Source: an uncultured virus (IMG/VR IMGVR_UViG_3300010365_000310) (lineage: Duplodnaviria > Heunggongvirae > Uroviricota > Caudoviricetes). From it: 64,000 bases of DNA. Below the pieces are notes generated by a model that had not been told where the DNA came from, searched no databases, and was given only the letters and a program-made list of their open reading frames with translations. The stretch lies in the IMG/VR virus record IMGVR_UViG_3300010365_000310; one strand, given 5' to 3'. Both the position numbers and the translations under genes were made by a program. This document shows, piece by piece, positions 5,284-36,361 of the stretch (within the stretch, counting starts at the first letter, position 1; every line of letters begins with the position of its first letter).

Positions 5284-5285
5284 CT

Positions 5286-10572: not shown

Positions 10573-11784
10573 ATGAGCATTATTGCCCCATTAAATTTAG
10601 ATAACTTTATAGATAAGCTTTCTCTTAAGGAAGTTACCAACCCGACAATTCTTTCAACTAAAGGGAAGTATGACACTGATGGATTATTCTCAGAAAGCAT
10701 TTTTGGTATGGATAGGTCAAAAGAACGAAGAAAGACTTATGCATACATAAAATTGAATACTAGAATCATTCATCCCTTGTTATATCAAATTCTCAAAAAG
10801 ATTGAAAGAAAGATCATTGATTTAATAGAAGGGGAAACTCTTTATATCAATGAACAAGATGGTTCTCTTTCAAAAGATAAAGCAGACGGATATAAAGAAA
10901 TATCTGGATTTGATGGGGCGATTTATGCTCTTACTCATGGTGTATTCTTTAGAGGTGATACTGATGTTAGAGATAAGTTGGTAGTCAAACTAAAAGAATA
11001 TATTAAGAGTGGCCTAATGTTTCTAGATAAGATGATTGTGATACCACCAGATTTCAGACCAGCTCAAATTAGTGAAACAGGTGAGTTGATTGGCGTTGAT
11101 GAAGTTAACTCAATATACATCAAATTAATCAATCTCACCAAGAAAGTTAAACTAACTGAAAACAATGATGCTAATGGTGTAATAAGTGAATCATCATACA
11201 TCAGAAGAGATATTCAAAATTTAGTAGTTGAATTATTTGATTATGCAAAAATGAGAACTGGTAAAAAGAGCGGAATCAATCGAGCCAACCTTTTGGGTAA
11301 ACGCGTAGACTTCTCTGGTAGAACGGTCATTACGGCTGGATACGACCTGCCTTTAGGTATGGCTGGTGTTCCATATAGAATTCTAGCAAACATCTGTGAA
11401 CCATTCTTGATCCATCATTTCTATAAAGAATTAGCAGAAGGCAGTAAAGAATATGAAACATTCATGACGATATTGGAAAAGAATGATTTTCATAAAAGTT
11501 TAAATGTTTTGATATTGACAAACTTCCTAAGAGATCTATCCGATGGTGCTGTTAAGCTTTCTAAAGATGAAGAGCTTTTTATCATGGATGTTTTTCAAAG
11601 AATACTCAATGAAAAGTATGTTTTATTGAAAAGAGATCCATCGTTTCATAAAGGTAGCTGGCAAGCATATAGGATCAAGGTGGAGAATCAGGTTGCTATT
11701 CGATTGAACACCACTAGCACAGTTCTCCATAATGCCGATTTTGACGGCGATTGTTGTTTTTCTAAGATACGACTGCGATATTAA
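10573..11784 (+). CDS. rpoC: RNAP beta' paralog 1, N-terminal part, fused to a 10-aa split-intein N-fragment
   Basis: DGLFSESIFG, VIPPDFRP, NLLGKRVDFSGRTVI, LKRDPSFH, NADFDGD (11731-11751), then CCFSKIRLRY-stop. Confidence 0.93.
   Translation: MSIIAPLNLDNFIDKLSLKEVTNPTILSTKGKYDTDGLFSESIFGMDRSKERRKTYAYIKLNTRIIHPLLYQILKKIERKIIDLIEGETLYINEQDGSLSKDKADGYKEISGFDGAIYALTHGVFFRGDTDVRDKLVVKLKEYIKSGLMFLDKMIVIPPDFRPAQISETGELIGVDEVNSIYIKLINLTKKVKLTENNDANGVISESSYIRRDIQNLVVELFDYAKMRTGKKSGINRANLLGKRVDFSGRTVITAGYDLPLGMAGVPYRILANICEPFLIHHFYKELAEGSKEYETFMTILEKNDFHKSLNVLILTNFLRDLSDGAVKLSKDEELFIMDVFQRILNEKYVLLKRDPSFHKGSWQAYRIKVENQVAIRLNTTSTVLHNADFDGDCCFSKIRLRY
11752..11781 (+). mobile_element. Split intein 1, N-fragment (CCFSKIRLRY)
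   Basis: Cys directly after NADFDGD; positionally equivalent to SVIGAVELNI of IntN-2. Confidence 0.8.
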
Positions 11785-11916
11785 ATTGGTATACAGTCAC
11801 AATCATAATACAAGTTCTGGGCATTTAATGATGTTGTTTCTTTAGATGACGCAAAGTCTAAAACTCCGTTATGCATCATCTGCCAAAAAGAATATGCCAG
11901 ACCAAGTCATAATGGT

Positions 11917-13188
11917 ATGGAAACGTGTTCAAATAAAGAGTGCATCAAAACTAATACCAACAAGAAGAAAACTGTTGTTAGATCAAAACAACTATCAATA
12001 ATGCAAAGTAAAACTATTGATGAGTTGCTAAGCATATATAGTAATCGAACAACAAAGAAAACACCATTCGGATGGTTAACATGGATACACCCTCACTATT
12101 TAAAATTTGCTAAAGAAATATACACACAAGAAGATATAGAATTTTTTGGCCAATCCAGGTTGGAAGTTTTATATAAGTATTGGGCTAATTTAAATATTAA
12201 AAATGTGGATGATGCGAAGAAGACAATACCCATGTGCTCGTATTGTAATATTAAACCTAGAGCTCCAAGAATCGTGGGGGATGTCATTTTAGATTCTTGT
12301 GCATCTGCCGAATGTTTAAATAAAAATCACATCGATTCCACCAAAAGATCAATGAAAAATAAGTATGGTGTGGAGAATATAAGTTCTTTGGAGAGTATGA
12401 AAATATATAGAAGCGAGATCATGAAAAGGAATCATGAAAACTTTGGGGATATTACAGAATTGAAGCGCAAAGAATGTGTAAAAGCTAAATACGGTGTTGA
12501 TAATGTTTCACAGATTGAAGCAATTAAAGAAAAAAAGATTGATTCTTTTCAAGAACATTATGGCAAGGATAACATTTTTCAGAGATCTGACCTAATGAAA
12601 GAATATTGGTTAAATGCCCTGGGAGTTGAAAACCCAAAGTTCAAATCTGAAATTAATATTAAGCGATGCTTAAACTTAATACCAGCCTTAATTGAATCCG
12701 TTGGTGAATACCATATGATTAATGGCAAAAGGTTTGGTATTATGGAACCAACCGAACTTCATTTATTGAGAGCATTAGTTGATTATGTCAAAGTGGATGT
12801 CATCGAAACTAATTCAACGGTATTTGAGAAAATGATTTTGGGAAAATCTAGAGCTTATATACCAGATCTAGTTATCGATAATAAAATCATCATTGAATGC
12901 AAATCTTGCGGTTTCGTCGATGAATATAGATTGCGAGAGATGTATGACCTTATAGGTGATCCCGATAAGATTTTAATTACATTTTCTAGTCATAAAGATG
13001 AATTAGCATGGTTAGTATATAAAGATGGTATCATTGACCGAGTGCATTATGAAAGTATTAGGTCAAAAAGATATCTTTTAAAAAGCTTAAAAGTTTTTAA
13101 GAGTGATAGTGTCATAACGGATCTTTTAAACTATATAATTATGAACATATCATATTCAGCATTATTAGAGAATGCGATCTCTATATAA
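11917..13188 (+). CDS. Free-standing putative homing endonuclease (Zn-finger repeats, YGV-N repeats, PD-(D/E)xK nuclease), possibly 5'-truncated
   Basis: KYGVENIS/KYGVDNVS/HYGKDNIF repeats; YIPDLVIDNKIIIECK nuclease motif; lies between the two halves of a fractured gene. Confidence 0.75.
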   Translation: METCSNKECIKTNTNKKKTVVRSKQLSIMQSKTIDELLSIYSNRTTKKTPFGWLTWIHPHYLKFAKEIYTQEDIEFFGQSRLEVLYKYWANLNIKNVDDAKKTIPMCSYCNIKPRAPRIVGDVILDSCASAECLNKNHIDSTKRSMKNKYGVENISSLESMKIYRSEIMKRNHENFGDITELKRKECVKAKYGVDNVSQIEAIKEKKIDSFQEHYGKDNIFQRSDLMKEYWLNALGVENPKFKSEINIKRCLNLIPALIESVGEYHMINGKRFGIMEPTELHLLRALVDYVKVDVIETNSTVFEKMILGKSRAYIPDLVIDNKIIIECKSCGFVDEYRLREMYDLIGDPDKILITFSSHKDELAWLVYKDGIIDRVHYESIRSKRYLLKSLKVFKSDSVITDLLNYIIMNISYSALLENAISI

Positions 13189-13199
13189 AGGACACCAGA

Positions 13200-13691
13200 A
13201 TGAAGTATTCAAAAGAAGAAGTCTTACACATTCAAGATTTAATTTCTAGATCAGATCTTTTTGAATTCACCGAAGAAAAGAATGGCATCCAAAAGTATAA
13301 ACCAATGAAAGATATCTTTATACAAGCCATATCTTTAGAAGATGGCAACACTGATTGGAAAAAGATAACTGAATATTCAGTCCACCCCAATCTTACTATG
13401 TATTCGGTTGAAGATGCATTTGAGAATCGATTTGAAAAATTCTGGGTATCAGATGATCATAGTTTAATTGTATTTGATGAATTGGATGAAGCGTACCTTA
13501 AAATTACGCCAGAAGAAATACTAAATGATTTTTATCGATATTCGTTGGTTCAAATCGTTAATGGCGAGAAAAGATATATTCCATGCGAAGAAATAGAACT
13601 AAAGATTGACCCCGAGAAAACAACGGGTTATGATTTTACCGTTGAAGATTATTATACTTTTGCAACACATGATGGAGTTTTTGTACAAGAT
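13200..13691 (+). mobile_element. Split intein 1, C-fragment (164 aa)
   Basis: Block B WVSDDHSLI, block F GYDFTVEDYYTF, block G GVFVQD followed by Thr +1. Confidence 0.88.
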
Positions 13692-15755
13692 ACTATGGCC
13701 GTATACTTTCCGATTACGATGGAAGGTCAGAAGGATGCTGAGACATTAATGTATATACCAGAAGGCAGTGTCAATACACATCAGTCATCTATTGATATAA
13801 AACATGAATATGTTTTATCATCATATACCATGACTAAGATGCCAACTAAATTTGAATTACCTGATATAGGTATAATCAAGCTTGATGATGTTAGAAAAAA
13901 TTCATTAATGGATTTTGCTATAAAGAATCATATTTATCAAACGGCAACTGTTATATTAGATAATGGTGCTAAATTAAAAACTACGGTTGGTAGAATCACC
14001 TTTAATGCAATATTTCCAAAAGAATTCTTATTGAAATATCATAAGGGTTTTATCGAAACTGCTGTTGATTCTAAATTTATGGCCGGCGATATATTACAGA
14101 ATCTTTTTGAGATGTATCAGAAGTTTGATTATGCTGATATCATATATCGAATGGTTGAAGCATTAAGAAAATACATAACTGTATATCCATCTAGCATGGT
14201 TCTAAGTGAACTACTACAAGCTTCCATGTTTGATGATCTTAAAAAGAAACTTAGAGAAGCAAAGTCAATGCCGGAGAAACAAGCGATTATTGATCAAATA
14301 GAAAACAAGATCAAAAAAGAAATAGCAGATAAGATGCCTATGTTAAATGATATCATAGCATCTGGATCAAGAGGTAAGCCAAATCAATTAAGACAGATGA
14401 TTGTTTCTAAGGGTATTCTTCAAGATGCTCAAGGTAATCTGTTATATATTGATGAGTCGTATATTGATGGACTAAGTCCTATTTCTACATTCATGGGTGG
14501 CTTCGGTGGACGCAAAGGTATTATGGATAGATCTCGTCAAACCGCGACCACTGGATATCTTTATAGAAAGCTAATCTACGCATTAGCAAGTGTCATCTTT
14601 AATGAAGATGTTGATGATTGCGGAACAACTAAAACCGTCATGTGTAAACTTACCAAAAAGAATGCTAAACTTCTTGATGGTAGATTTATAATGGATGGCA
14701 AAAAGAAAGTTCTTTTGAATGCTAAAACGATTGGTGAGTTCATGGATACAACCATAAATCTAAGAACTCCAATATATTGCAAAACCCATAAGCTTTGTAA
14801 AACCTGCTATGGTGATTTGATGCACTTTTATCACAGTAAGTTCATAGGAATTATAGCAGCTCAATCCATGGGTGAACGCGCTTCTCAAGAAATGATGAAA
14901 ACGTTTCATACGGGTGGATCTACTAATGTTGAAATTCCAAACCTTTTTGAACAGATGGCCCACAATAATCCTTTGATTAAAGAATCTGATTTGATGAATT
15001 ATTTCATTCAAGAAGGTACGAAGTTTAAGCTTAAAAATAATTACAATGTTAAAATGGTTTTAAAACAGAGTGATTATTTGAAAGTGAATATGACTTCGTT
15101 TACGGTTATGGATGATGAACGTTCAGCGTTTATAGTTGAGAATATGAAGATTGAAGGAACTCAACTAGCTAGAGCGTTTCATACCAAACCATTCTCAGCG
15201 GAAATAACCATTTATAATGTATCGGAGGAATTATATACTTTTGATGCAATTATAGATGATGGTGTCTTTTTAGCTATTGATTATTTCGATGTTGACGAAT
15301 ATAAAAATGATGAAGGTGTAAAAGTAATTGAATTAAAGAATCGAGATAATGAATTACCATTCTTATTCAATGTTGAGTTATCTTCAAGCGATATGACCGT
15401 AATCATGCAAACGGTTCTTAATATCATTGAGCGCAAGAATATCATGAAGCACCCTGAAGTAGCATTCAATAAACTATCTTTAATTTATGGTGATGATTTT
15501 GGTATTGCTTACAATCATATTGAAATTTTGATATCTCAGATTTTTAGAAATAAAGCCAAACCTGAATTACCAGCACGGTTGGTTGATCCCTATGATGCTC
15601 AAGTTTACAGCATTAAAAATATTGCACACTTGGAATCATTTGTATCTGGTATGCTTTTTGAAAATATGAGTAAATCATTACAGAATGGTTTAATCAATGA
15701 TTCCACTATACAAAACCCTCTTGAGAAATTATTATCGGATGATTTGGAATTTTAA
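13200..15755 (+). CDS. rpoC: Split-intein C-fragment fused to RNAP beta' paralog 1 C-terminal part
   Basis: Own SD AAGGA (13188-13192); extein starts TMAVYFP; TTVGR, SGSRG, bridge helix GRKG...TATTGYLYRKL, Zn site, trigger loop AAQSMGE...KTFHTGG. Confidence 0.93.
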   Translation: MKYSKEEVLHIQDLISRSDLFEFTEEKNGIQKYKPMKDIFIQAISLEDGNTDWKKITEYSVHPNLTMYSVEDAFENRFEKFWVSDDHSLIVFDELDEAYLKITPEEILNDFYRYSLVQIVNGEKRYIPCEEIELKIDPEKTTGYDFTVEDYYTFATHDGVFVQDTMAVYFPITMEGQKDAETLMYIPEGSVNTHQSSIDIKHEYVLSSYTMTKMPTKFELPDIGIIKLDDVRKNSLMDFAIKNHIYQTATVILDNGAKLKTTVGRITFNAIFPKEFLLKYHKGFIETAVDSKFMAGDILQNLFEMYQKFDYADIIYRMVEALRKYITVYPSSMVLSELLQASMFDDLKKKLREAKSMPEKQAIIDQIENKIKKEIADKMPMLNDIIASGSRGKPNQLRQMIVSKGILQDAQGNLLYIDESYIDGLSPISTFMGGFGGRKGIMDRSRQTATTGYLYRKLIYALASVIFNEDVDDCGTTKTVMCKLTKKNAKLLDGRFIMDGKKKVLLNAKTIGEFMDTTINLRTPIYCKTHKLCKTCYGDLMHFYHSKFIGIIAAQSMGERASQEMMKTFHTGGSTNVEIPNLFEQMAHNNPLIKESDLMNYFIQEGTKFKLKNNYNVKMVLKQSDYLKVNMTSFTVMDDERSAFIVENMKIEGTQLARAFHTKPFSAEITIYNVSEELYTFDAIIDDGVFLAIDYFDVDEYKNDEGVKVIELKNRDNELPFLFNVELSSSDMTVIMQTVLNIIERKNIMKHPEVAFNKLSLIYGDDFGIAYNHIEILISQIFRNKAKPELPARLVDPYDAQVYSIKNIAHLESFVSGMLFENMSKSLQNGLINDSTIQNPLEKLLSDDLEF

Positions 15756-15770
15756 TAGGAGAATTACTTA

Positions 15771-16265
15771 ATGGACCGTTTGGATAAGTTTCTTTTTCTT
15801 TTTGGTATTGCACTAATGTTTACTTTTTTCTACCCTTCATATTTATGTCTAATGTGTATATATGGCACAATACTCATAATTGGTGGGATAATGACAAAAT
15901 CTTTTATGCCAGTAACCATTGGAGTGATTTCCTTTGTACCGTATTTAATGCCTCAGTTTAAATTGATGTCTTTGATTTTTGGTATTATGACATCATTAGC
16001 AGCTCTCGGCGCAAAAGGCGAAACACACGCAAGAACCGGAGAATCGGAAAAGTTATATATTGAAAGAGTTGTATTCGGTGAGATGGTTCTGTTTGAATTG
16101 TATACCCAAAACGAAAAGAAATATTGCATCGTTGAAAAGATAACAACCAAAGAACTTTATACAATTGAAGATTTTAATATTTATCATGAATCATTGTGCA
16201 AAGCATTAGATAAAGTTCACAATATCATGGAAGAAGATAAATCAGTTATTTGCATTTGGAAATGA
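15771..16265 (+). CDS. Membrane protein
   Basis: AGGAG RBS; hydrophobic N-terminal ~80 aa. Confidence 0.6.
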   Translation: MDRLDKFLFLFGIALMFTFFYPSYLCLMCIYGTILIIGGIMTKSFMPVTIGVISFVPYLMPQFKLMSLIFGIMTSLAALGAKGETHARTGESEKLYIERVVFGEMVLFELYTQNEKKYCIVEKITTKELYTIEDFNIYHESLCKALDKVHNIMEEDKSVICIWK

Positions 16266-16504
16266 GGAGAACTGCCATGTTTGAATTCGTGAAGTATGAT
16301 GCTGAAGACTTTTGCTCTATCGTTAGGGATAAAGAAGGATGGGCCGTGGGTGAACAAGCAGAATGCATTTTTCTCAATGATGAACCTTTGGAGGAACAGA
16401 ATCCAAATGCGTTAAAAGCAATTTCAGATCTTGCTAAATATAAAGGTGAACCTTTGATACATAAAGCAATAGAAGATTATTTAAATAACGTTCAGGAGAA
16501 TTAA
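16250..16504 (+). CDS. Small hypothetical protein
   Basis: ORF track; GAGGAG suggests the internal ATG is the real start. Confidence 0.5.
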   Translation: MHLEMRRTAMFEFVKYDAEDFCSIVRDKEGWAVGEQAECIFLNDEPLEEQNPNALKAISDLAKYKGEPLIHKAIEDYLNNVQEN

Positions 16505-16507
16505 CCC

Positions 16508-18244
16508 ATGTGCGGAATATTTGCGTTCTTTAATATGGATTCAGGTATTAAAATACCATATGAACTAATTAAGACTGTAGCCATTGAAGCCCAAAAAAGA
16601 GGCAGAGATGGTTATGGTTACATGATCAATGATGCACTTTATAAAGAATCATCATCCGATACTTTTGAAATGTTTAATGTTCGAATCGGTAGACAATCCT
16701 TTGGTATGGTTAATTGCAGGGCTAAACCTGAAACCGAACAGGCCACAACCAAAATCAATATGCAACCAATTTCTTATGTTGATATGTTCAACAATAAAGA
16801 ATACTTGGTGCATAATGGTGCAGTATCGGAAAGCTACAAAGATGAGATGTTTAAAAAGCATTCATGGAAGCCCATCACTAAAATAGATAGTGAAGCTTTG
16901 CTTTGTATGTGTGTACATGAAGGTGTTGATGCTAACACTCTTTCAAAGATTAATGGTGGTTTTGCATTCATTCATATGAAAGTATTTGAAGGTAAATTGC
17001 AAAAGGTGAGTGTTGCTTGCAAATACCAACCATTGTATGCATTGGAAGTAGCAAGCCCTGCTGGTAGTGTAATATTCTATCACAGTCTCAAAAGTGGTAT
17101 TGACATTCTTAAGAAATACTATGAAGCCGGGGAATACTTTATTAATGAATATGAATTCCCTGAATATGCTTTTGAAACATTTGACTTAGTTAATGGTACT
17201 CGAGATAAAGGAACATTCGAACCATATTTTGAATATCCTAATAAAGCTAAGACCAATAAGAAAGTTAAAGTATTATGCGCATGCTCTGGTGGTATTGACT
17301 CTACCACTAGTTTGATTATGGCTCATAAGCTTTTGGAAAAAACTAAAGTTCCGTTTGATATAGATCTGGTCCATTTTAAATATGGCCATAGAGGTCAGAC
17401 GGCCGAAATTAACGCGGTTCGAGATATAGTTGAATGGTTAGAGCATAGTGATATCAAAGTCAACCTTAAGGTTGTTGATCTTGAAGACATTTACAAATAC
17501 GTTTTTAATGTTCAAAGAAGTCAATTAATCAATCCAAACTTAGTTGTAGAAACTGGAACGCAGGATAAGTTAAAATCAACTGTGGCTTGGGTTCCGGTTA
17601 GAAATATGCTTTTTCAAACTATTATGATTGGTTTAGCTGAGACTTATATTCTTGAAGAAGGATATAAGAAAGCTTATATAGTTGCTGGTTGGAACCAACT
17701 ATCAGAAGAAGGATTCTACCCGGATAACTCAAGCAGGTTTGCTAATACAATGTTAAAAGCTGCTAAATTCGGAACACTGGTTGGCAATCAAATTAAACCA
17801 TGGAATATATGTAGCCAATTACTTAAAAGCGATCAGTGGTTGTTGGCTGAGGTATTCAAATTCATTGAAGTCTTTAAATACACAATATCTTGTGATATAC
17901 CAGTTCTTGATGGCCCCGCATTCTATAATTGCAATGGACAATGTGGATCTACTTTATTAAGTATGTGGGCAGCCAAAAGGTATAAAGGTATCAAAGATCC
18001 AAGACAATTCAGGGATGCTAGTGTAACCATAAGCAAAGATAAGATGTATACATCTCCAATTGAAGAAGAATTGGAAATAACCCGAGATGTAATAACTCAA
18101 ACCATCAATAGAATTATTAAACCAGATGAAGTCACCTACAATTTACACAAGATCTTTCAGACGAACATTCTGGAGACCATTAATAATGCCCGAAACAATG
18201 CAGTCGAATATATACCTGATGGAGATGTTGAAAAGGTTTTATGA
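16508..18244 (+). CDS. Gat-QueC fusion (Ntn glutamine amidotransferase + QueC)
   Basis: MCGIF start, RGRDG, QPI, HNG, IDSE; then CSGGIDST, YGHR, VPVRN, YPDN, TISC. Confidence 0.9.
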   Translation: MCGIFAFFNMDSGIKIPYELIKTVAIEAQKRGRDGYGYMINDALYKESSSDTFEMFNVRIGRQSFGMVNCRAKPETEQATTKINMQPISYVDMFNNKEYLVHNGAVSESYKDEMFKKHSWKPITKIDSEALLCMCVHEGVDANTLSKINGGFAFIHMKVFEGKLQKVSVACKYQPLYALEVASPAGSVIFYHSLKSGIDILKKYYEAGEYFINEYEFPEYAFETFDLVNGTRDKGTFEPYFEYPNKAKTNKKVKVLCACSGGIDSTTSLIMAHKLLEKTKVPFDIDLVHFKYGHRGQTAEINAVRDIVEWLEHSDIKVNLKVVDLEDIYKYVFNVQRSQLINPNLVVETGTQDKLKSTVAWVPVRNMLFQTIMIGLAETYILEEGYKKAYIVAGWNQLSEEGFYPDNSSRFANTMLKAAKFGTLVGNQIKPWNICSQLLKSDQWLLAEVFKFIEVFKYTISCDIPVLDGPAFYNCNGQCGSTLLSMWAAKRYKGIKDPRQFRDASVTISKDKMYTSPIEEELEITRDVITQTINRIIKPDEVTYNLHKIFQTNILETINNARNNAVEYIPDGDVEKVL

Positions 18245-19196
18245 TATCGGGATACCACATTTAAGTAAGTCGGAACAAGAACGTTTTAAATGTCATCTCT
18301 TTTCTATAGTTGATCTGTTATCTTTTAATTTGGATGATCGATTCAATTTACTTAGGGACTTTCTAGGGGATAGAAAACTAAAAGCATTTTTAACGTTCTT
18401 GTATAACCAAGAGTGTGATGATTTTAGGCGAGACCATCTAACCTTGGGGTATGGTGGTTGCGAAGGTAAACCCGAAGTTGTTTTTAGACATGTAGCAAAT
18501 CTGGCTCAAGAATATGAAGATCAAAAAATATTTGCATTAAGAACCCTATTCTTTAAAATCAATATTTTATCATCGATTGGTTATGAAAAGTATTTTTATG
18601 ATATTCGAGATGAATTGTTGTTTTATTGTTTAGCACCTTTGGGTTTAACCTTTGGTGAATGTTTCTTGTATTATGGTAAAGATACCTCTAGTTGGTTGAA
18701 GAATCTTGAAAGCGATAAGTTGAAATTTTCAATATGTGACCAGCTGCATACTCTTTATAATAATTCAGATAAAAGATCCATAGCGGTGTTATTGATATTG
18801 AAGCTTTTATCTTGTGATGTTTTTTCAAAGAATGATCAACCACATCTTGCTTACGTGGAAGGTAGAAAGCTTTACATAAATGAAACACTAATTAAAGAAG
18901 CCAATCTTCCGTTGTTATTACATGAAGCTTGTCATCTATTGCATTCATATGAGGACCGATTCAAGGATTTCTTGAATGCCTTTGGCCATTATTGTGAACC
19001 ATATGATATAGCTAAATCATGGGCGACAACCAAGGAAAGGTGTATAAACCAATTCATAAGAACCCATTGTTATCTTAAAACAATATCTCGAACAATCAAT
19101 AGCAATACAACCTTTGATACATTATCAATCACTACCAGTGTTATGTTAGATTTAAAGCAAAAGAATCAACCTTTCGTTAATCAGATTTGGAAATAG
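18126..19196 (+). CDS. Hypothetical protein with HExxH metallopeptidase-like motif
   Basis: EGRKLYINE...LLLHEACHLL; true start probably downstream of 18126. Confidence 0.5.
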   Translation: MKSPTIYTRSFRRTFWRPLIMPETMQSNIYLMEMLKRFYDIGIPHLSKSEQERFKCHLFSIVDLLSFNLDDRFNLLRDFLGDRKLKAFLTFLYNQECDDFRRDHLTLGYGGCEGKPEVVFRHVANLAQEYEDQKIFALRTLFFKINILSSIGYEKYFYDIRDELLFYCLAPLGLTFGECFLYYGKDTSSWLKNLESDKLKFSICDQLHTLYNNSDKRSIAVLLILKLLSCDVFSKNDQPHLAYVEGRKLYINETLIKEANLPLLLHEACHLLHSYEDRFKDFLNAFGHYCEPYDIAKSWATTKERCINQFIRTHCYLKTISRTINSNTTFDTLSITTSVMLDLKQKNQPFVNQIWK

Positions 19197-19197
19197 G

Positions 19198-21069: not shown

Positions 21070-21093
21070 GAATCAAATCAAAGGGGAATCTAA

Positions 21094-23811: not shown

Positions 23812-23835
23812 ACGATCCACCTTCTGGAGAAGAAT

Positions 23836-25029: not shown

Positions 25030-25039
25030 GGAGCTACTC

Positions 25040-25978: not shown

Positions 25979-26035
25979 TTCTAACTTATGCATCAGTAAA
26001 AAAATATATCAAATCTTATTCTAGGAGAATTATCT

Positions 26036-27061
26036 ATGGCCGGTAAGTCTGGCAATATAATGCACCAGAATGTTAGTAATATTTTGGAGGCTCAGAAGGA
26101 TGTATTGAAAGAGAACACGACCGCTGAAGAAGTCAAAGAAAAAATTGGTAAACCAGCCATGTTTGAACCACCAACTAAAAGTGAGCCTCAAGAAGAAAAG
26201 GGTAAAATGGTCTTTAAGGGATTCAAATACTCAGACACTTCTTGTGCAAAAGTTGAAACATATTTGCCAGTTTTGAATACTAAGGTTCGGCAGACTCCCA
26301 TTCTATTTCAGGAAGAATTAAATCTTGCTCAGACCATCATCACGGATAAAGATGTCATGATGGATACATTGACAATCCTTTACCAGCACATCGTTGAAGG
26401 TCCAACCGAGATCACTCCTTCTTTTGAAACATTCCTTAAGAATGTGCCGGAACCCGATTACGATGCACTACTATATGGTTTCTTCCTTAATAGTTATGGC
26501 CCGGATGTCAAGGTTGAAGATACCCTGAAATGTATTAATTGTGGTAAAGAACACTTCGTCGAATCAATCAATCTTCTTAATCTCTATAAAGAAACCCCGT
26601 ATGAAGGTGAAGCATTTGAATGTTTAAAAGTCATTGAAGAAGTCAATCTCAATGATTGCGGTATTGATGCTTCATTTTTCTTGAAAATGCCCTCCTTAGA
26701 AATTTACTCTCAGGATAAGAAAATCTCCAAGAGAAATTTCATCAGTGAATTAACTTCTGGTAATTTTGCTGATTACATCTGTAAGCTAGTTTATGCTGGT
26801 GAAGAATTCACCGATAAAGAAAGTATTGTAAATGCAATCAACACCCTCAATGTCACAGCCAGAAGGAAGCTTAAAAAAGTAATCAACGACAAGTATAATA
26901 AGTATGGTATCAAATTTACATACGAATGGACTTGTGATGGTAAAGTGCCAGACACAGATTCAATCAAAGAAAAAGCAGAGAAGAAGTGCAATAAAGCTAA
27001 TACTAAAAATTATAGAATCTTCGACTTGTTTTTTCGTGAGATATCTGAGTCTATATCTTAA
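26036..27061 (+). CDS. Baseplate hub assembly protein (T4 gp26-like)
   Basis: P...EE.L, D.DALL...SYG, CxxCG, LKMP, C-terminal Cys pair ending LFF. Confidence 0.6.
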   Translation: MAGKSGNIMHQNVSNILEAQKDVLKENTTAEEVKEKIGKPAMFEPPTKSEPQEEKGKMVFKGFKYSDTSCAKVETYLPVLNTKVRQTPILFQEELNLAQTIITDKDVMMDTLTILYQHIVEGPTEITPSFETFLKNVPEPDYDALLYGFFLNSYGPDVKVEDTLKCINCGKEHFVESINLLNLYKETPYEGEAFECLKVIEEVNLNDCGIDASFFLKMPSLEIYSQDKKISKRNFISELTSGNFADYICKLVYAGEEFTDKESIVNAINTLNVTARRKLKKVINDKYNKYGIKFTYEWTCDGKVPDTDSIKEKAEKKCNKANTKNYRIFDLFFREISESIS

Positions 27062-27257
27062 TCCGTTAGATGCAAATAAGATGATGGCGAAGTTGATTGA
27101 TACATACTTATCAACATTGTCTTATTTGCGTTACGAAGAAATATTGAGAATGCCGGTTCCGTTGCTTAATGCTTTAGTTGCAGTTAAGAGTGAAAGCAAA
27201 GGAAACGGAACTGATAATCTAGGTCCATTAATTAATGCATTCCTTGGAAGGAGATAA
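26904..27257 (+). CDS. Small gp51-like baseplate assembly protein (true start likely near 27081)
   Basis: YEEILRMPV motif directly after the gp26-like gene. Confidence 0.4.
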   Translation: MVSNLHTNGLVMVKCQTQIQSKKKQRRSAIKLILKIIESSTCFFVRYLSLYLNPLDANKMMAKLIDTYLSTLSYLRYEEILRMPVPLLNALVAVKSESKGNGTDNLGPLINAFLGRR

Positions 27258-27262
27258 CTACC

Positions 27263-27946
27263 TTGACTAAGCTCGCCAATATTAACGATTTCGAAAACTT
27301 TTTGAACAGCGCCGAAGAATCGTTTTCGAAAATGAATGAAATCTCAAAAAATGAAAATTTGACACCTGAAGAAAAAGAAAAACTTTCTCAGGAATACATG
27401 TCAAAGATTCAGGAAATTACCAACGTCTATAAATCCATTCTTGGATCGGTTAGGCAAAGGGGTAAGGGGGAGAAGGTTAGCAAATATTCTTTGAATGAAA
27501 GCATAAGAAAGCATAAGAATTTTGCATACAGTTTTCTTAATATTGAAGAAGACTCTGATATTGAAAAGATCACTGATTGCATGTATGATCTAATGGCTGA
27601 AGTCCTGAATGAAACAGATCTCAATAAGCGTTTCAGACTCAGTCAGCTTTATTCAATTGCTCTCAAGAAAAACTTCAATTCATTTCGTGAAAACATGATT
27701 GAGATGATTGAAACGGAAGCTAATGAAGAAACCAAATATGATATTGGTTCAGACTTCTATGCTGCATATTTCAAAATGATTGTTGAAGCAGTCAGCAAGA
27801 AATATAATGATGAAGTTGAAGAACGAATCAAAGCCGAAGAAAAAATGGCAGCAATGAGAAAAGCTAAAGAAGAAAAGATGGAAACTGGCAGTGAAATCGT
27901 AGGTGCAACCGAAGAGAAAAAAGTTGAGGCTGTAACTAATGTATAA
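27263..27946 (+). CDS. Hypothetical helical protein
   Basis: AGGAG before TTG start. Confidence 0.55.
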   Translation: MTKLANINDFENFLNSAEESFSKMNEISKNENLTPEEKEKLSQEYMSKIQEITNVYKSILGSVRQRGKGEKVSKYSLNESIRKHKNFAYSFLNIEEDSDIEKITDCMYDLMAEVLNETDLNKRFRLSQLYSIALKKNFNSFRENMIEMIETEANEETKYDIGSDFYAAYFKMIVEAVSKKYNDEVEERIKAEEKMAAMRKAKEEKMETGSEIVGATEEKKVEAVTNV

Positions 27947-28334
27947 TGTCACAAAGGTGGAAGTCATTAATGATGTAAATGTTGAAAGTATTCTTCAAAA
28001 GAAAGAGAATGGTTTATTTGAATCATTATCTGAATCAAGATACAGGTTATTCTGTGAAGCATTTGCTCATACGATCAATGAACGTTTTCCTCGGAGTGAC
28101 CGTCTACCTAAAGTAACATCTTTTGCATTAAGAACCGTAGTTAGTGATGATAAGGCGAGATATGTTCGTCTATTTGAACTGGCTACAAAATTCATGATGA
28201 CAACGGATGATGATAAAAAAGTTCAATATGATCTAACATTTGAAATCTATGAAACCCCCGAGGGTGACGAAGATTGTGAATTGTTGTCATATTACTCAGC
28301 TCAGTATAAACCAAAAGAAGAAAATGAAGGCTAA
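27939..28334 (+). CDS. Hypothetical protein
   Basis: Overlapping operon-style ORF. Confidence 0.5.
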   Translation: MYNVTKVEVINDVNVESILQKKENGLFESLSESRYRLFCEAFAHTINERFPRSDRLPKVTSFALRTVVSDDKARYVRLFELATKFMMTTDDDKKVQYDLTFEIYETPEGDEDCELLSYYSAQYKPKEENEG

Positions 28335-29673
28335 AGTTTCTTTTCACGTAGAAATACCATTATCGGATATAAATCCGGGTCATTTGGACCAGATTAAATC
28401 CCATTTGACTTTACAAGTCAGAGATTACATGACTGGTGAATATCAAAAGGTTGAATATTTCTACGTGGATGAAAATGCTAAAACAATAACGTTGCCGCAA
28501 TTCTATCCAATGGAAGTGGATGAAGTTGAATTTGTGGCAACGTCCGGACAACCGTTATCTTCAGGTTATTCAATCACTCCCGATTTCAAATATAAACCAG
28601 GTCAAGAGGATGATGTCAATAAATGCTTGATTAAAGATATCATCACTCTAATGAAACCACCCGGTTCTGGTAAAACTATCATAGGATCTTGCGCCATATT
28701 TAAACGTGGTGTAAGATCCTTGATCTTAGTTGACCAAAATAACTTATCGGAACAATGGTTGGATGCTTTGAAGTTAGTCTATAAAGATACAATCAAAGTA
28801 AGTAATAAGTTTGCTTTAGATGGTAAGGGAAAAGATCATGGTTATGATGTCTATGTCACCACCATTCAAGGTATAGTAGCCAAGATACGAAAGTATGGTA
28901 TTGCGTCAGTTCGAGAGTGGTATAAGAAGTATGATATAGGACATGTGCTTTTGGATGAGTGTCATGTCTTAGTGGGTCCAGAGAAGTTTTCACAATTTGG
29001 TCATATATGCAATTCAAAGTATGTATTGGCATTATCCGCTACACCAAAAGATAATGTTTATTTTCAATATTGGTTGGGTGTTGATGTTGAAGGTGATAAA
29101 GATTATGTAGTTAGCCCGACTATTGTTGAGATGAGTTTTAATGCAAAAATGAATTATAAAGAAAAGTATATCAACTGGGGTGGCAAATTTCACAAAGATC
29201 GTCATGCTAATATACTATTTAAGGATGAACACTATTTGGATTTAATCAGAGCTGTTGCATATAAGTCATTCATCAATAAACGTCAATTCTTAGCAATCTG
29301 TGATTTTAATAAGTTTGGTGTTGATGCAATATATGATCACATAATCAAACTCATACCCAAAGAGCAAGTGGCTAAATTTATCGGCGGACAAGATCGTATT
29401 GAATGTTCAAGCAAACCAATTATCATTAGTAATTATAAGATGTTGCAAAAGGGTGCTGACATTAAAACCTTGGATACATTATTGATGGCTAGTGAGATTG
29501 GAGACTTAACCGCTCTTGAGCAAACCGTTGGTAGATTATTACGTTTCTTGGAATCAATTACTAAAAAAGAATTATTAGTTTTTGATATACAAGAAACATC
29601 CCTGACTTGTAATCTATGGAGAAAAGATAAAAGATTTTCCTTTTACCGTGAGAAAAATTTTACGATAATATGA
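28324..29673 (+). CDS. Superfamily 2 helicase (UvsW-like)
   Basis: PPGSGKT, LLDECH, LSATP, GADI, QTVGRLLR. Confidence 0.88.
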   Translation: MKAKVSFHVEIPLSDINPGHLDQIKSHLTLQVRDYMTGEYQKVEYFYVDENAKTITLPQFYPMEVDEVEFVATSGQPLSSGYSITPDFKYKPGQEDDVNKCLIKDIITLMKPPGSGKTIIGSCAIFKRGVRSLILVDQNNLSEQWLDALKLVYKDTIKVSNKFALDGKGKDHGYDVYVTTIQGIVAKIRKYGIASVREWYKKYDIGHVLLDECHVLVGPEKFSQFGHICNSKYVLALSATPKDNVYFQYWLGVDVEGDKDYVVSPTIVEMSFNAKMNYKEKYINWGGKFHKDRHANILFKDEHYLDLIRAVAYKSFINKRQFLAICDFNKFGVDAIYDHIIKLIPKEQVAKFIGGQDRIECSSKPIIISNYKMLQKGADIKTLDTLLMASEIGDLTALEQTVGRLLRFLESITKKELLVFDIQETSLTCNLWRKDKRFSFYREKNFTII

Positions 29674-29865
29674 AACAATAGACTGAATAATAAAAATAAT
29701 CATTCAGAAAGAGGTTTCCATGATACCCATTGATATCCCGGAACAATACGTAGATATCACTATAGAAGAAAAAATAAATTCACTCAACCGTTACTATTCC
29801 AAAAATCCCGACTTTAAAGAATACGAACTTTGCTTATCATTTTTAGAAAAAGCTAGGAGCGTGAA

Positions 29866-30153
29866 ATGTCTTACGCATGGGTGATCATCAAAGAATTTGA
29901 TTTTGAAAATTCTGAGTTGTTTAAAGATGTTGAGATTATAGGACCAAGACACCCAAAATTTTCAAAAGACAAAATCATAAATGAAGGTTCAAAATTTCGA
30001 CTGTACGATGATGACGGTGTTCTTTATTATGAAGGACATATCTTTGGTGATGATACCGTTAATGGTTTTGAACCATTAGACGATTTTGGTATGCCTAATG
30101 ATGGTTGTACCACAATCAAGTATTTTGTAGATGGTATTTGGAAAACTTTATAA
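29866..30153 (+). CDS. Conserved-type small phage protein
   Basis: AGGAG RBS; FRLYDDDG..YYEG motif. Confidence 0.6.
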   Translation: MSYAWVIIKEFDFENSELFKDVEIIGPRHPKFSKDKIINEGSKFRLYDDDGVLYYEGHIFGDDTVNGFEPLDDFGMPNDGCTTIKYFVDGIWKTL

Positions 30154-30163
30154 GGGGAAACTC

Positions 30164-31483
30164 ATGCCGAAAAAACTAGTTCTCAAGAAGTTGACTGATT
30201 ATGATTCGAAGCCGGTTACCAGTGATAAAATCATTGATAAGAAACGGTTTCATGAAGCAGGACTTTATAGTCAAGCAATCTTTGGTCCAATTAAAGATTA
30301 TGTTTGCCAGTGTGGTAAATATGATCCATTCGGCGGGGAATGTGAAGTATGTAAAGTTGCTTATACCAAAAGCGAAGTTCGAGGCACTAAGTTCGGCCAT
30401 ATCTTATTGCCTAATGAAATCATTAATCCATTGTTCTTGTGGAATCTAAGCACAAGGATTAAAAAGAGCACCACTAAAATTGATTTGCCATCACTGATTT
30501 TCTATAAAAAGATTTTGATCTTTAAAGATGGTGAACCAAGAATGGTTTCGGTTGAAGATTTTGATACAGTGAAAGAAACTTATGACACTTACTGTGGTGT
30601 TGAAGCCGTAAAGAAAGTTATAGCTTTCATTGAAGAAAAACTCAAAGAAAATGAAAAGTTTAAAATTGAGCCATATATCAAAATGTCTTCTTGGAAACTT
30701 ATTAAAGAAGCTGGTGAACATCTTTTTATTGATAGAATACTGGTAGTCCCGCCAGATCTCAGACCAATACTCTTTACTGGTAACAAGATGGTTGTTCAGG
30801 AAACTCTGTCAAGATTGTATACAACTCTTTTGACTAAGTTGAATATCATGAACAATAAAACCAAATTTATCAAAGGTGTAAATACAACAACTTTTAAGAA
30901 TTACGCAGATATTCAATATATGTGCTCAGGCATTTATGAAGAAATTTTGGGTATCTTTGGTGGTAAGACTGGTATCATCAGAGGTAACATGCTTGGGAAG
31001 AGAATTGATTATTCCGGGCGAGCTGTTATTGCAGTGGATCCGAGCCTGAAATATAACGAATGTAGAATTCCGTATTATATACTTCTTGAAGTGTATAAAT
31101 ATTCTCTGGCAAGAGATATATCTAAGAAGCGTAATGTAATGATCTTTAAAGTTCTTGATGAGATTGAAGAGTCTTTAAAGTTCAGGGATTACAGGTTTCT
31201 TAAAGAAGTTGAAGAATTTGTCAAGAATAAGATGGTCATGCTCAACCGTCAGCCAACTCTTTATAAACTTGGGGTTCTTGGTTGGAATATTAAAGTTAGC
31301 ACGGATTTTACTATCAAATTGCACCCATTCGCCTGCCCCGCCTATAACGCCGATTTTGATGGCGATTCAGTTATTGGGGCAGTAGAACTGAATATCGAAG
31401 GCAAGAAGAAAGTATTTGAGATGGAAGATCTACTCAATGTTGAATTCAATGAAAAGAAAAACGACTGGGAGATTGTGAAATGA
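30164..31483 (+). CDS. rpoC: RNAP beta' paralog 2, N-terminal part, fused to a 38-aa split-intein N-fragment
   Basis: GLYSQAIFGP..DYVCQCGKY...CEVC zinc ribbon, VVPPDLRP, NMLGKRIDYSGRAVI, NRQPTL, YNADFDGD (31346-31366), then SVIGAV... Confidence 0.94.
   Translation: MPKKLVLKKLTDYDSKPVTSDKIIDKKRFHEAGLYSQAIFGPIKDYVCQCGKYDPFGGECEVCKVAYTKSEVRGTKFGHILLPNEIINPLFLWNLSTRIKKSTTKIDLPSLIFYKKILIFKDGEPRMVSVEDFDTVKETYDTYCGVEAVKKVIAFIEEKLKENEKFKIEPYIKMSSWKLIKEAGEHLFIDRILVVPPDLRPILFTGNKMVVQETLSRLYTTLLTKLNIMNNKTKFIKGVNTTTFKNYADIQYMCSGIYEEILGIFGGKTGIIRGNMLGKRIDYSGRAVIAVDPSLKYNECRIPYYILLEVYKYSLARDISKKRNVMIFKVLDEIEESLKFRDYRFLKEVEEFVKNKMVMLNRQPTLYKLGVLGWNIKVSTDFTIKLHPFACPAYNADFDGDSVIGAVELNIEGKKKVFEMEDLLNVEFNEKKNDWEIVK
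31367..31480 (+). mobile_element. Split intein 2, N-fragment (38 aa, Ser1)
   Basis: SVIGAVELNIEGKKKVFEMEDLL has the intein block A strand-strand-helix pattern. Confidence 0.85.
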
Positions 31484-32061
31484 TTAAAGAGTATATTCGA
31501 GAACTTGAAGATTACATTTTAGGATTCACTGATGGTGTTGTACCAAAAGAAATTCAAAGCATAAGCAATTTGAGTGAAAAGCAAATTCAAGATCTTTTTG
31601 ATATGAAGGAATTTATTCTTTCAAATAGAAATATATTTCAGCCGTTTTCTAAACTTGAATATTATGACACAATATTCTGTTTCGGGTTTAAATTGGTTAT
31701 TAACTCAAGATCCAAAATAGAAGAATATATTGCTGATAAAATGTTTAAAAGAAGAGAGATTGTCATGAAATTGGTTGATGATAAAGATCTTCTGGCAACT
31801 CTTTATGTCACAGTTCCTAAAAAACCTTTAGTCGAAACAATTTCAAAATCCGATTACATGGAATCTTTGTATGATATTGCTTGTGATCTTTGTGAAGTGC
31901 TTGGAGAAGATAAAATCAATCTTTTCACAAGTAGGCAAATTAAATATCTTGCGTCATTACTTGATTGCACCAAAGGTGATTTCGGGTATAAGATTTCATA
32001 TTCAGTTATGAATGATCTTTTTAAAGAACGATTCGAGGCAGAATTGAATGAGTTCAAATGA
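31480..32061 (+). CDS. Hypothetical protein inside the fractured beta' locus 2
   Basis: ATGA overlap with upstream gene; no motif recognised. Confidence 0.6.
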   Translation: MIKEYIRELEDYILGFTDGVVPKEIQSISNLSEKQIQDLFDMKEFILSNRNIFQPFSKLEYYDTIFCFGFKLVINSRSKIEEYIADKMFKRREIVMKLVDDKDLLATLYVTVPKKPLVETISKSDYMESLYDIACDLCEVLGEDKINLFTSRQIKYLASLLDCTKGDFGYKISYSVMNDLFKERFEAELNEFK

Positions 32062-32206
32062 TTTAAAACCCGGAGTCTATGAACTTTTCGGAAATACCGT
32101 TCATTATCTTGATGAAGAGGCCTATGATGTTGATGCTGGTCAAGAGGTTCCGGTAGATGTTCTTAAAGAATATGGCAAATTTGTAAAAGATTTTGATAAC
32201 TTTTGA
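32048..32206 (+). CDS. Small acidic protein (52 aa), not in ORF track
   Basis: MSSNDLKPGVYELFG...FDNF; fills the gap between neighbouring ORFs. Confidence 0.5.
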   Translation: MSSNDLKPGVYELFGNTVHYLDEEAYDVDAGQEVPVDVLKEYGKFVKDFDNF

Positions 32207-32216
32207 AAGGGAGTAA

Positions 32217-32711
32217 ATGGAACAATCAGATCTGCCCCAATTGTTAGTCCTATTGAATTGCCAGAATGATTTTGCTACCCCCGAATTTCCATACTATAAA
32301 AAGTTGTTATGTGATACCCATCGAAAAGATATTTTGAAATTATTGGAAACCGTTTTTTATGATGATGTTTTGGTATTGATCGACTTGCATAGTAAAGAAG
32401 AGTTTGAAAGAAAGCAAATTAAACATTGTATATTTAATAGTGAAGGTGCTATGATATTCACTCCATTGTTGCAATATCTTAGAAAGAATTTTAAAACCCG
32501 AGCTTTCATTAAAAATGAAACAAGACACCTGAGAAATAATAATCTACTCAAAACTCATTTATCTAATTTCAATCCCAGAGTTACTACCATTGATTATTGC
32601 GGGTTTGAACATTATAAGAATGAATTTGAAGATGTACATAATTATTTTGCTAACTTCGGTTATGCAACCGGTAAAAAAGTTATCATGAATGTATCTAATA
32701 AGGAGAACTGA
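32217..32711 (+). CDS. Divergent nicotinamidase/isochorismatase-family protein
   Basis: LLVLLNCQNDF, IDLH, HCIFNSEGA, FIK; catalytic Asp/Cys look altered. Confidence 0.6.
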   Translation: MEQSDLPQLLVLLNCQNDFATPEFPYYKKLLCDTHRKDILKLLETVFYDDVLVLIDLHSKEEFERKQIKHCIFNSEGAMIFTPLLQYLRKNFKTRAFIKNETRHLRNNNLLKTHLSNFNPRVTTIDYCGFEHYKNEFEDVHNYFANFGYATGKKVIMNVSNKEN

Positions 32712-32714
32712 GGT

Positions 32715-33182
32715 ATGGGAAAGAAGTTATTTGAATTCAGTCATAAAGATGGACATATATCTCATTATAAACCAACGGTGAATATTTTGATTGAAGCCAT
32801 TTCAGAAGATGGTAAAATCGAAATGAAACCAATAACAGATTTCTCAGTTCATGAAAACTTGGTTATGTATAAAGTGCACGATAGACTAAATCGTTTTAAA
32901 GATTTTTGGGCATCGGATGATCACAGCTTGTTAGCTATTGATCGCGGTAAAGTCTACAAGATATCGCCAAAAGAAATTCTTGAAAAACGAGACAAAGAAA
33001 TAATCAATATGATATATAAGAATCCACCATCTGATGCAAGCCATGTGTCGGAGTTGGGTATTATTTTTATCAATGCAAATGAACTTGATATCACTCTTGA
33101 TCCAAGTAAGACAACTGCATATGATTTCACCGTTGAAAATTACTTTACTTTCAGATTAGCAGATGGTCTGTTTGTACAGGAT
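32715..33182 (+). mobile_element. Split intein 2, C-fragment (156 aa)
   Basis: Block B WASDDHSLL, block F AYDFTVENYFTF, block G GLFVQD followed by Ser +1. Confidence 0.88.
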
Positions 33183-34691
33183 TCAATGGCTGCATACTTT
33201 ACCTTAACTGAGGAAGCTGAAGCTGAACTCCGTGATAAGGTGTCAATTGATAATAACCTTTTCATGGATTTCGATAAAAGGAACCTCACCCTTCAACCGG
33301 GACACGATATCGTATATGGTATATACTTACTATCCAAACGTAAACCAGAGGCGTTGCCTAAACCGTTACACGAATATATGGTAGCCCAAGGATGGGATTC
33401 AGTCAATAAGAAAAGGCTTAAAGAATTTCTTGTCTATCACATTGGTCTTGATAAACGCAATGCAAAAATCATTGATGAGATTACTCAGCTTGGTTTCACC
33501 ATTGCTACCAAATACAATCAAACACATCTGTCCATTGAAAACATTATTTCTAGTATCGTACCATTGGAAAAGAGACAGGCTCTTTATGATCGATACATGA
33601 AAAAAGAAATCAGTATGTTTGAATACATGGAAGAAGACGAGAAGATGACCGATGAACTCAAGAAGATCTGCGTCTTCACGGATTTGATTGAATCTGGATC
33701 AAGAGGTTCATGGCCTCAGGCTAAACAGATGTTTCAACAGAGAGGTTTCGTAAGTAACTCGGTTGGACAGGTTATGCCCACTCCGGTCATGAGAAACCTA
33801 GCTGAAGGTCTTGATTCAAGAGAATTATTCCTTTCGTGTTATGGTGTTAGAAAAGGTATTGCAGATATCTCCGACAACACCGCCGTATCTGGTACATTTA
33901 CTAGAGCTCTAATCTATCTTGGACTTGAGGCTAAACAGGGTGATCACAAGAAGCCATGCGATACGAAAAAGTATTTGAATCTCAATGTTGAAGATGAAAA
34001 GATGGCTAGCGCCTTGTTCGGTCGTTACATTTTCCTTGATGACGAATGCAAAGAAATGGTTCGAGTCACAAGAGAGAATTATAAAACATTCATTAATCAA
34101 AATGTTAGATTGAGATCTCCAATCTATTGTGTGAATCATGAATATTGCCACTATTGTTCACCATATAAAGAACTGAATGAAATCGAAAAAGGTAAGACCT
34201 ATAATGTAGGCATCAATGCTGCTGGTAGCTTAGGTGAACCAACCACCCAGATGGTTCTCAGAGTATTCCATACCTCCGGGGCTAGTGGTAAGATTTCAGA
34301 TAATCAAGATGGGAAACAGGGGGTTGTTCAGGATTTGAGAGGAACCATTGGGTTATTCTCTAAGCCTAACTTTACCTTTCAAACTCTCCCGAACTATCTT
34401 TATAAGATATACAAGACCTATAGTGAATACAAAGAAATTCCGATGCTCTATTTTGAAGTATTGCTTTCTTGTTTGATGTGGACCAAGTCAGATCCGAATC
34501 TTGAAGAAGTGGATGTCCTGTGGAGATTGAAGCAGGATAATACCTTGGAACTTGTTGGATATAATAAAGTTCCAAGTCTTTATGGATTCTTGCTTGGTTG
34601 CGCCTTTAAGAACTTCAAACGAAGATTGCTTTCCTCATTGAATAAGAATGTTGGTAATAGCATATTCGAGAAACTCATTCTGGGAGAATGA
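32715..34691 (+). CDS. rpoC: Split-intein C-fragment fused to RNAP beta' paralog 2 C-terminal part
   Basis: AGGAG RBS; extein starts SMAAYF; QPGHDIVYGIYLL, SGSRG, VRKG...TAVSG, RSPIYC, AAGSLGEPTTQMVLRVFH. Confidence 0.93.
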   Translation: MGKKLFEFSHKDGHISHYKPTVNILIEAISEDGKIEMKPITDFSVHENLVMYKVHDRLNRFKDFWASDDHSLLAIDRGKVYKISPKEILEKRDKEIINMIYKNPPSDASHVSELGIIFINANELDITLDPSKTTAYDFTVENYFTFRLADGLFVQDSMAAYFTLTEEAEAELRDKVSIDNNLFMDFDKRNLTLQPGHDIVYGIYLLSKRKPEALPKPLHEYMVAQGWDSVNKKRLKEFLVYHIGLDKRNAKIIDEITQLGFTIATKYNQTHLSIENIISSIVPLEKRQALYDRYMKKEISMFEYMEEDEKMTDELKKICVFTDLIESGSRGSWPQAKQMFQQRGFVSNSVGQVMPTPVMRNLAEGLDSRELFLSCYGVRKGIADISDNTAVSGTFTRALIYLGLEAKQGDHKKPCDTKKYLNLNVEDEKMASALFGRYIFLDDECKEMVRVTRENYKTFINQNVRLRSPIYCVNHEYCHYCSPYKELNEIEKGKTYNVGINAAGSLGEPTTQMVLRVFHTSGASGKISDNQDGKQGVVQDLRGTIGLFSKPNFTFQTLPNYLYKIYKTYSEYKEIPMLYFEVLLSCLMWTKSDPNLEEVDVLWRLKQDNTLELVGYNKVPSLYGFLLGCAFKNFKRRLLSSLNKNVGNSIFEKLILGE

Positions 34692-36213: not shown

Positions 36214-36361
36214 TACCATCTTTAGAAATGAAGAAGGTATTGTTAAAGGTATCTTGAAGAAAGGTGATGTTATTGACGTCCATTTTAATGATGTCATCAA
36301 AGCATACCATAATGACAAGTATGGTTACTTCATGGATGTTGAACTCGAGGTCTTACCATGA
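36191..36361 (+). CDS. Small hypothetical protein (56 aa), not in ORF track
   Basis: AGGAG before ATG 36191; ATGA overlap with next gene. Confidence 0.55.
   Translation: MKAMIKYNTIFRNEEGIVKGILKKGDVIDVHFNDVIKAYHNDKYGYFMDVELEVLP

Follow-up and report, generated by a model that had tools for sequence, protein, structure and literature searches.

The 64,000-nucleotide stretch of DNA analysed here (hereafter the window, meaning the whole stretch), from the uncultured caudovirus record IMG/VR IMGVR_UViG_3300010365_000310, encodes two paralogous beta' subunits of RNA polymerase, each broken into two genes directly after the catalytic NADFDGD motif by inserts that, judging from sequence and structural modeling, are the halves of split inteins. 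Each beta' is very probably produced as two precursors that would be joined by protein trans-splicing, and we regard the arrangement, with the same confidence, as the relic of a tolerated selfish element and not as an evolved switch. The original prediction, made from the sequence alone, already proposed that both paralogs are interrupted by split inteins at the same site; the four open reading frames (ORFs) and the junctions are as it gave them, and the interruption is now backed by an intein-free allele, by the HINT fold modeled for one intein piece and by unsplit alleles of the same intein. It did not include the different split points of the two inteins, the conservation of a 10-residue N-piece and the terminal Asp.

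All four genes lie on the plus strand. In pair 1, ORF N1 (10573-11784) encodes a 393-residue N-extein (10573..11751; Pfam RNA_pol_Rpb1_2, E 4.6e-22) ending in NADFDGD (11731-11751), followed by the N-terminal intein piece IntN1 (11752..11784), which consists of 10 residues (CCFSKIRLRY; Cys1, net charge +3) and a TAA stop; tails of the same pattern, 11-13 amino acids long, are found in the relatives P0043, P0044, P0046 and P0049. ORF C1 (13200-15755) starts with the 164-residue C-terminal piece IntC1 (13200..13691; S-D-D-H block B, block F Asp, Gln-Asp end, charge -19), which finishes with VQD and gives way to TMAVYF, the beginning of a 687-residue C-extein with Thr at position +1 (13692..15755; RNA_pol_Rpb1_5, E 1.8e-21). 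Pair 2 repeats this anatomy with other lengths: ORF N2 (30164-31483) encodes a 401-residue N-extein (30164..31366) with NADFDGD at 31346-31366 and the 38-residue, Ser-initiated IntN2 followed by a stop (31367..31483; net charge -3), and ORF C2 (32715-34691) encodes the 156-residue IntC2 (32715..33182; net charge -6), likewise finishing with VQD, and, from SMAAYF on, a 502-residue C-extein with Ser at +1 (33183..34691; RNA_pol_Rpb1_5, E 1.1e-14). By Pfam the exteins are beta' halves, and the two paralogs are 25% and 28% identical in their N- and C-exteins, respectively. A purine-rich stretch resembling a Shine-Dalgarno (SD) sequence precedes all four starts. The fracture was originally placed at the catalytic motif, and it does adjoin NADFDGD, but all three catalytic Asp residues stay on the N-half in both pairs.

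The stops that end the N-halves are not artefacts of a single assembly, since the same junctions recur elsewhere: L011 and L012 differ from window positions 3200-25752 at 0 and 4 sites, with the pair-1 junction unchanged, and the pair-2 junctions are identical in L027 and L028, although these four assemblies may come from samples related to the source of the window. The sequence of L027 parts from that of the window at about 41089, and that of L028 at about 38196; one contig from a public sequencing run skips 102 bases at 13481-13584.

The identification of the inserts as inteins starts from structure. The AlphaFold2 model of IntC1, built on a 42-row alignment (predicted local distance difference test, pLDDT, 95.2), adopts the HINT fold, and in a Foldseek search every match listed was an intein or an intein-like domain, the best being the Aes123 PolB1 intein (E 1.3e-7, template modeling score 0.71). 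The intein profile retrieved three matches from the PDB sequences at E<=1, all of them inteins. IntC2, 45% identical to IntC1, is assigned through that identity. For a 129-residue N-piece, modeling from its own sequence alone reached a pLDDT of 42, too low for use, and single-sequence locus scans of viral contigs gave no matches. The boundary of the insert is fixed by an uninterrupted allele, P0042, which is 73.8% identical to N1 and lacks the intein: here NADFDGD runs straight into TMAIYFP, in agreement with the predicted junction, and the tail that follows is 63% identical to the C1 extein over 68 amino acids.

A profile search of the whole library placed the window inteins in a large family, with 224 representatives at E<=0.001 and 115 at E<=1e-10. 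Among the 133 new matches listed and two earlier proteins, 31 carry an unsplit intein directly after DFDGD, comprising 26 inteins of 448-547 residues and 5 mini-inteins of 175-221; the window pieces add up to 174 amino acids in pair 1 and 194 in pair 2. One family member, P0173, is 46% identical to IntC1, and P0020 is annotated in Pfam with LAGLIDADG_3 (PF14528). Several further variants were encountered. The same intein occurs unsplit in polymerase proteins of 2000-3000 residues (P0237, P0241, P0257, P0259, P0271 and others) and, with a Tyr-Asp end, at the same site of a distant phage beta' (L106:7381-9040). Apparent tandem inteins occur in P0166 (also P0161 and P0247), where what seems to be the beginning of a second intein directly adjoins the unsplit one that follows DFDGD, and in P0007 and P0174 C-halves of the short-split type contain a second, unsplit intein, which in P0007 lies at the trigger-loop TFH motif.

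All 40 aligned rows (one of which, L055, has one extra residue) share an upstream His, the D-H-S of block B, the Asp of block F and Asp as the last residue, and the full block B motif S-x-D-H-S is invariant or nearly so. The upstream His lies 25 residues before the block B His in 40/40 rows, and both window inteins have Val in front of it; NX-motif Ser1 inteins have a conserved His before block B with Arg or Lys preceding it. The first residue of 58 distinct N-pieces is Ser in 45, Cys in 9 and Thr in 4. All 37 C-termini recognised by pattern among the stronger whole-library matches end in Asp followed by Thr, Ser or Cys, and in the first profile set of 37 proteins all 34 that have a C-terminus end in Gln-Asp; the terminus is unbiased in these two sets only, the locus scans having used intein motifs ending in QD. 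The penultimate residue is Gln in both window inteins and Q, Y, F, W, M, L or N across the family, the common but dispensable His not being present. An alternative boundary with Gln as the last residue was rejected, as it would place Asp at both position 1 and position +1. An intein from Carboxydothermus reportedly splices with a terminal Asp, although a literature search for it found nothing. The features of a class 1 intein are thus present, namely the HINT fold (in the IntC1 model), Cys1 or Ser1, the block B His, the block F Asp and a terminal Asp before Thr or Ser, and Asp is among the termini given for class 1 (PMC7664689; here and below, papers given by PMC or preprint number are cited from the available parts of their text).

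The split points of the two inteins differ. Distinct N-pieces of the family fall into three length classes, of 10-13 (5 pieces), 27-47 (15) and 128-159 residues (38), and the window phage has one of the first class, IntN1, and one of the second, IntN2; in both pairs the halves are separate genes with their own starts, a short N-piece and a long C-piece, i.e., an atypical split. The five shortest N-pieces share the pattern Ser/Cys-x3-Lys/Arg-Val/Ile-Arg followed by a stop, and the short N-piece is kept in four relatives whose exteins are 48-60% identical; Ser comes first in four of the five, Cys1 of IntN1 having no counterpart in the other four. Eight C-proteins of the 37-protein set have the same start point as IntC1. 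On a matrix built from 70 other N-termini of the family the window 10-mer scores 17.3 bits. No more than 6e-5 of 110,948 random open 10-mers drawn from the window score as high, so that the piece is not a product of chance. The first ten residues of the short N-pieces are basic (+2 to +3) and the matching C-pieces acidic (-13 to -20; charge test p 0.0007). In a quick intein tree the short type forms one clade (support 97) with IntC2 outside, and more than one origin for the other split types is suggested but not forced. A scan for further loci of the 10-13-residue type found distant or cellular genes only. Atypical-split N-pieces are about 15-25 residues long (PMC12707363) and the 15-residue N-piece of PolB16 is called "the shortest characterized" (PMC10189870), so a natural N-piece of 10-13 residues, as these sequences indicate, would be the shortest known in the literature consulted.

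The DNA between the halves differs between the pairs. Pair 1 encloses a free-standing homing-endonuclease-like gene (11809..13188, plus strand) with a DUF7487 domain (Pfam, E 2.9e-8; PHROG homing endonuclease, E 5.9e-7) and a PD-(D/E)xK-like C-terminal domain (TnsA-like and PDDEXK leads in Atlas). Its frame is open from 11809, and the first ATG, at 11917, lacks an SD, so the gene is possibly 5'-truncated; at low depth, one contig of run X2 switches beyond 11810 to different DNA that bears an SD and an ATG, and another joins at 11812 in frame from upstream. The nuclease gene of the X2 strain is thus apparently longer and starts independently, and the window copy may be a truncated form of it. 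Pair 2 encloses three non-nuclease ORFs on the plus strand: one of 193 amino acids (31480..32061) that matches no family in Pfam, NCBIfam or PHROG, one of 52 (32048..32206, from the ORF listing) and an isochorismatase-like one of 164 (32217..32711; Atlas features 0.90, structural template modeling score 0.78 to PF00857, no Pfam match). Among 21 related loci with both halves (two of them near-copies), a DUF7487 gene lies between the halves in 9, ordinary genes in 7, at most 92 bases in 4 and short plus-strand ORFs only in 1; at L045:8231-9934 the intervening genes are dUTPase-like and PAAR genes. With a DUF7487 gene between its halves, pair 1 agrees with the model of fractured genes (Dassa et al., 2009; PMC2677866); that label, originally given to both, does not suit pair 2, which looks like a later state of such an arrangement.

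A nuclease gene inside a gene also calls to mind a group I intron, in which case the halves would be joined at the RNA level and an ordinary cis-splicing intein would follow. The frame of four close N1 relatives (P0045, P0047, P0048 and P0050) does run off after DFDG, where introns may lie at a distance of one codon from the site of the intein, and a short hairpin is present at about 11770-11800. However, the Rfam scan of the window gave no match at the gathering score and the five Rfam matches at E<=10 within 11400-13500 include no intron family; the folding of 11740-11930 is unremarkable (z -0.27); the non-coding room around the nuclease frame amounts to 24 nucleotides before it and 11 after; and the gap of pair 2 is filled by its three ORFs. 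Both C-genes have an SD, as do the short-type C-genes of L013 and L014, which are placed after unrelated genes, and the halves of G006 lie on opposite strands with about 76 kb between them. In contigs from four public runs no joint across 11784-13200 was seen; the RNA run among the public data covered 11 of 30 bins, with no RNA contig spanning the junction, too little to bear on RNA splicing or expression. On this sequence evidence RNA-level joining is unlikely, and the intron scheme as such appears extremely improbable.

Certain observations weigh against the reading of the inserts as functional, trans-splicing inteins. The check on 13200-13691 and 32715-33182 that had been proposed with hidden Markov models (HMMs) of HINT domains and inteins failed: neither C-piece is matched by the HINT models of Pfam, and those of NCBIfam match below their cut-offs only. 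The case for inteins therefore rests on fold and homologs. Block B has Ser in place of the usual Thr, and the Gln-Asp end deviates from His-Asn. The five short N-pieces form a single clade, so that their shared charge does not constitute five independent observations and the charge test is not independent evidence; the intein and extein trees are quick ones with many open branches, and a single origin for each split type is compatible with them. Among the related loci retrieved, both halves of the 10-13-residue type are found on this phage only. Finally, in L008:1493-1657 a stop follows two residues after the C-piece and the extein resumes in another frame; this allele is either dead or an assembly error.

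Two further explanations draw on these points. The pieces could associate and cleave both ends without ligation, the beta' halves then assembling non-covalently as in natively split phage polymerases. Such an outcome could be favored by the non-canonical Gln-Asp end and would be eased by the location of the three catalytic Asp residues on the N-half. Related intein-free proteins end about 51-54 residues past the motif, among them the N-halves P0090, P0092-94, P0096, P0097, P0101, P0103, P0106, P0109 and P0110 at 51-53, perhaps because the chain is natively split there or the position of an intron is conserved, and the region may accordingly tolerate a chain break. Nevertheless, the +1 nucleophile, which is required for ligation, is retained in all recognised C-termini, and among intein-free genes an end at the motif itself was observed only for the four alleles whose frame runs off after DFDG, which seem to be interrupted; cleavage without ligation is accordingly very unlikely. 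The second explanation, that one or both pairs are dead and decaying, could appeal to the possibly lost start of the nuclease gene and to the broken allele in L008, but it is hardly credible given that the four ORFs are full-length with intact motifs, that the strains of the four other runs have no small insertions or deletions listed within the covered parts, and that the short N-pieces persist in relatives as diverged as those described above.

Uninterrupted alleles, which the original prediction proposed to seek, were found in quantity: besides P0042, beta' is uninterrupted at the site in 15/42 viral loci (the best-scoring ones, three pairs being near-copies), where the protein continues for 400-1000 residues beyond the motif, and in 80 cellular loci 81/81 motif matches continue with QM. 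In nine related records that show both paralogs, one paralog is split in G002, G003, G005 and G008, none in G010-G014, and both in 0/9, all nine being partial genomes (28-66% complete). A quick extein tree, drawn without duplicates and without the majority of cellular and giant-virus rows, intermingles alleles that have the intein with alleles that lack it and forces at least 12 changes in the intein-free label (P0100 and L072, both intein-free, are mislabelled by the pattern). Two beta genes were detected in 4/5 related records searched and a gp23-type capsid protein (PF07068) in 3/5, which may point to the mReC phages as the group concerned. The earlier comparison with the natively split beta' of phiKZ and AR9 is loose, given that beta' in this phage group is normally one gene across the site.

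This patchy, interleaved distribution is the behavior of a homing element and argues against a conserved gate on transcription, the function originally proposed for the splicing step. If trans-splicing had been domesticated to time or condition the activation of both polymerases, one could understand why both paralogs are split here as against none of the nine related records and why ordinary genes separate the halves of pair 2, and Cys1-Cys2 of IntN1 could conceivably sense redox state. Yet the closest relative of N1 has no intein, 15 related viral loci and both paralogs of 5/9 related records are uninterrupted, the halves are close together in the same orientation, and Cys1 does not recur in the other short N-pieces; we consider a gate unlikely.

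From the observed anatomy, IntC1 fold, exact boundaries, family and distribution, we infer the following course of events and mechanism. A mobile LAGLIDADG-bearing intein would have inserted itself by homing at the codon that follows the third catalytic Asp in phage beta' genes, spread to both paralogs and lost its nuclease in some lines. Later it would have been split at one of three points, in many cases by a nuclease gene of the free-standing DUF7487 kind. The basic 10-residue N-piece of pair 1 and the 38-residue N-piece of pair 2 would each supply the first beta-strand to the respective C-piece, which in pair 1 is acidic. Splicing would follow class 1 chemistry, with an acyl shift at Cys1 or Ser1 and transfer to Thr+1 or Ser+1, and the release step would employ the terminal Asp in place of Asn. 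Unspliced, the polymerase would carry a domain of 170-190 residues at its active center, and the strand that follows the metal-binding loop would belong to another chain. The different split points and charges probably keep the two pairs largely apart: N1 with C2 would miss intein residues ~11-38 and should fail, and N2 with C1 is possible but would lack the basic patch. A stronger proposal is that an orthogonal pair was selected, in which split points and opposite charges block cross-splicing, ligation (including that of the 10-residue piece, with an Asp-terminal partner) times the formation of each active site, and one-way leakage, of N2 with C1, could give a third, chimeric beta'; this is a speculation that we hold doubtful.

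Several known systems resemble parts of this arrangement. The PolB16 OarG intein (Pasch et al., 2023; PMC10189870) is likewise metagenomic, naturally split near its N-terminus and inserted in a polymerase, with Ser/Thr chemistry and an additional His that is conserved upstream of block B; the present inteins differ in their RNA polymerase beta' host, the N-piece of 10 versus 15 residues, the terminal Asp and the co-occurrence, within a single genome, of two alleles that are split at different points. The fractured genes of Dassa et al. (2009; PMC2677866) share with pair 1 and nine related loci the order of N-half, free-standing nuclease gene and C-half on one strand, and the split of the terminase intein described there likewise comes after the first motif, but RNA polymerase is not among the hosts given there, the nucleases are GIY-YIG or Vsr-like as opposed to the DUF7487 type, the inteins end in Asn, and pair 2 has no nuclease gene. 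The Aes123 PolB1 split intein (PDB 9hth), the best structural match, is also a naturally split phage intein, and cysteine-less, but is 16% identical and differs in host protein and split site. The mReC phages (Weinheimer and Aylward, 2020; PMC7481178) have similar cellular-like beta and beta' subunits, and PF07068 occurs in 3/5 of the related records, but the word "intein" does not occur in the available text. The phiKZ and AR9 polymerases (Iyer et al., 2021; PMC7824862; MarsHill preprint 10.1101/2020.12.14.422802) parallel the window in that each phage has two multisubunit polymerases with genes struck by mobile elements; their beta', however, is natively two chains and interrupted by introns, and the best matches to the window are only 23-30% identical. 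Further related literature includes PMC4760082, PMC2874743 and PMC8861304. A comparison of the intein with 50,697 phage records gave no match. Unsplit polymerase inteins are present in phage phiEL. No natural split intein in an RNA polymerase was found described in the literature searched, although supplementary intein tables or InBase could list the site; what the window contributes is the twin split-intein layout and the 10-residue N-piece.

The beta subunit is encoded nearby on the plus strand, with its N-terminal portion at 34693..36213 (Pfam RNA_pol_Rpb2_3) and its C-terminal part at 39210..41063 (RNA_pol_Rpb2_6, E 6.4e-44). Between these two beta genes (36358-38949) lies a gyrase/topoisomerase A subunit gene whose intein (about 36586-37815), of the canonical His-Asn type, is contiguous. 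Elsewhere in the window are the 7-deazaguanine pathway genes, encoding QueD, two QueC-like proteins and GTP cyclohydrolase (4798-6068, 16508-18244 and 42545-43156), a sigma factor gene (53520-54332), a gene for an adenylosuccinate-synthetase homolog with a GDEGKG motif, presumably PurA-like (56431-57615), and a transposase-family gene (60237-61262).

If splicing occurs as proposed, this phage builds the active sites of both of its polymerases from four genes. The N-piece of 10-13 residues is easy to synthesise, and its Ser start in 4/5 cases suits cysteine-free ligation. The family also offers many natural Asp-terminal inteins for the study of a little-characterised last step and, with unsplit, mini and three split forms among the 115 representatives at E<=1e-10, a direct test of the origins of split inteins.

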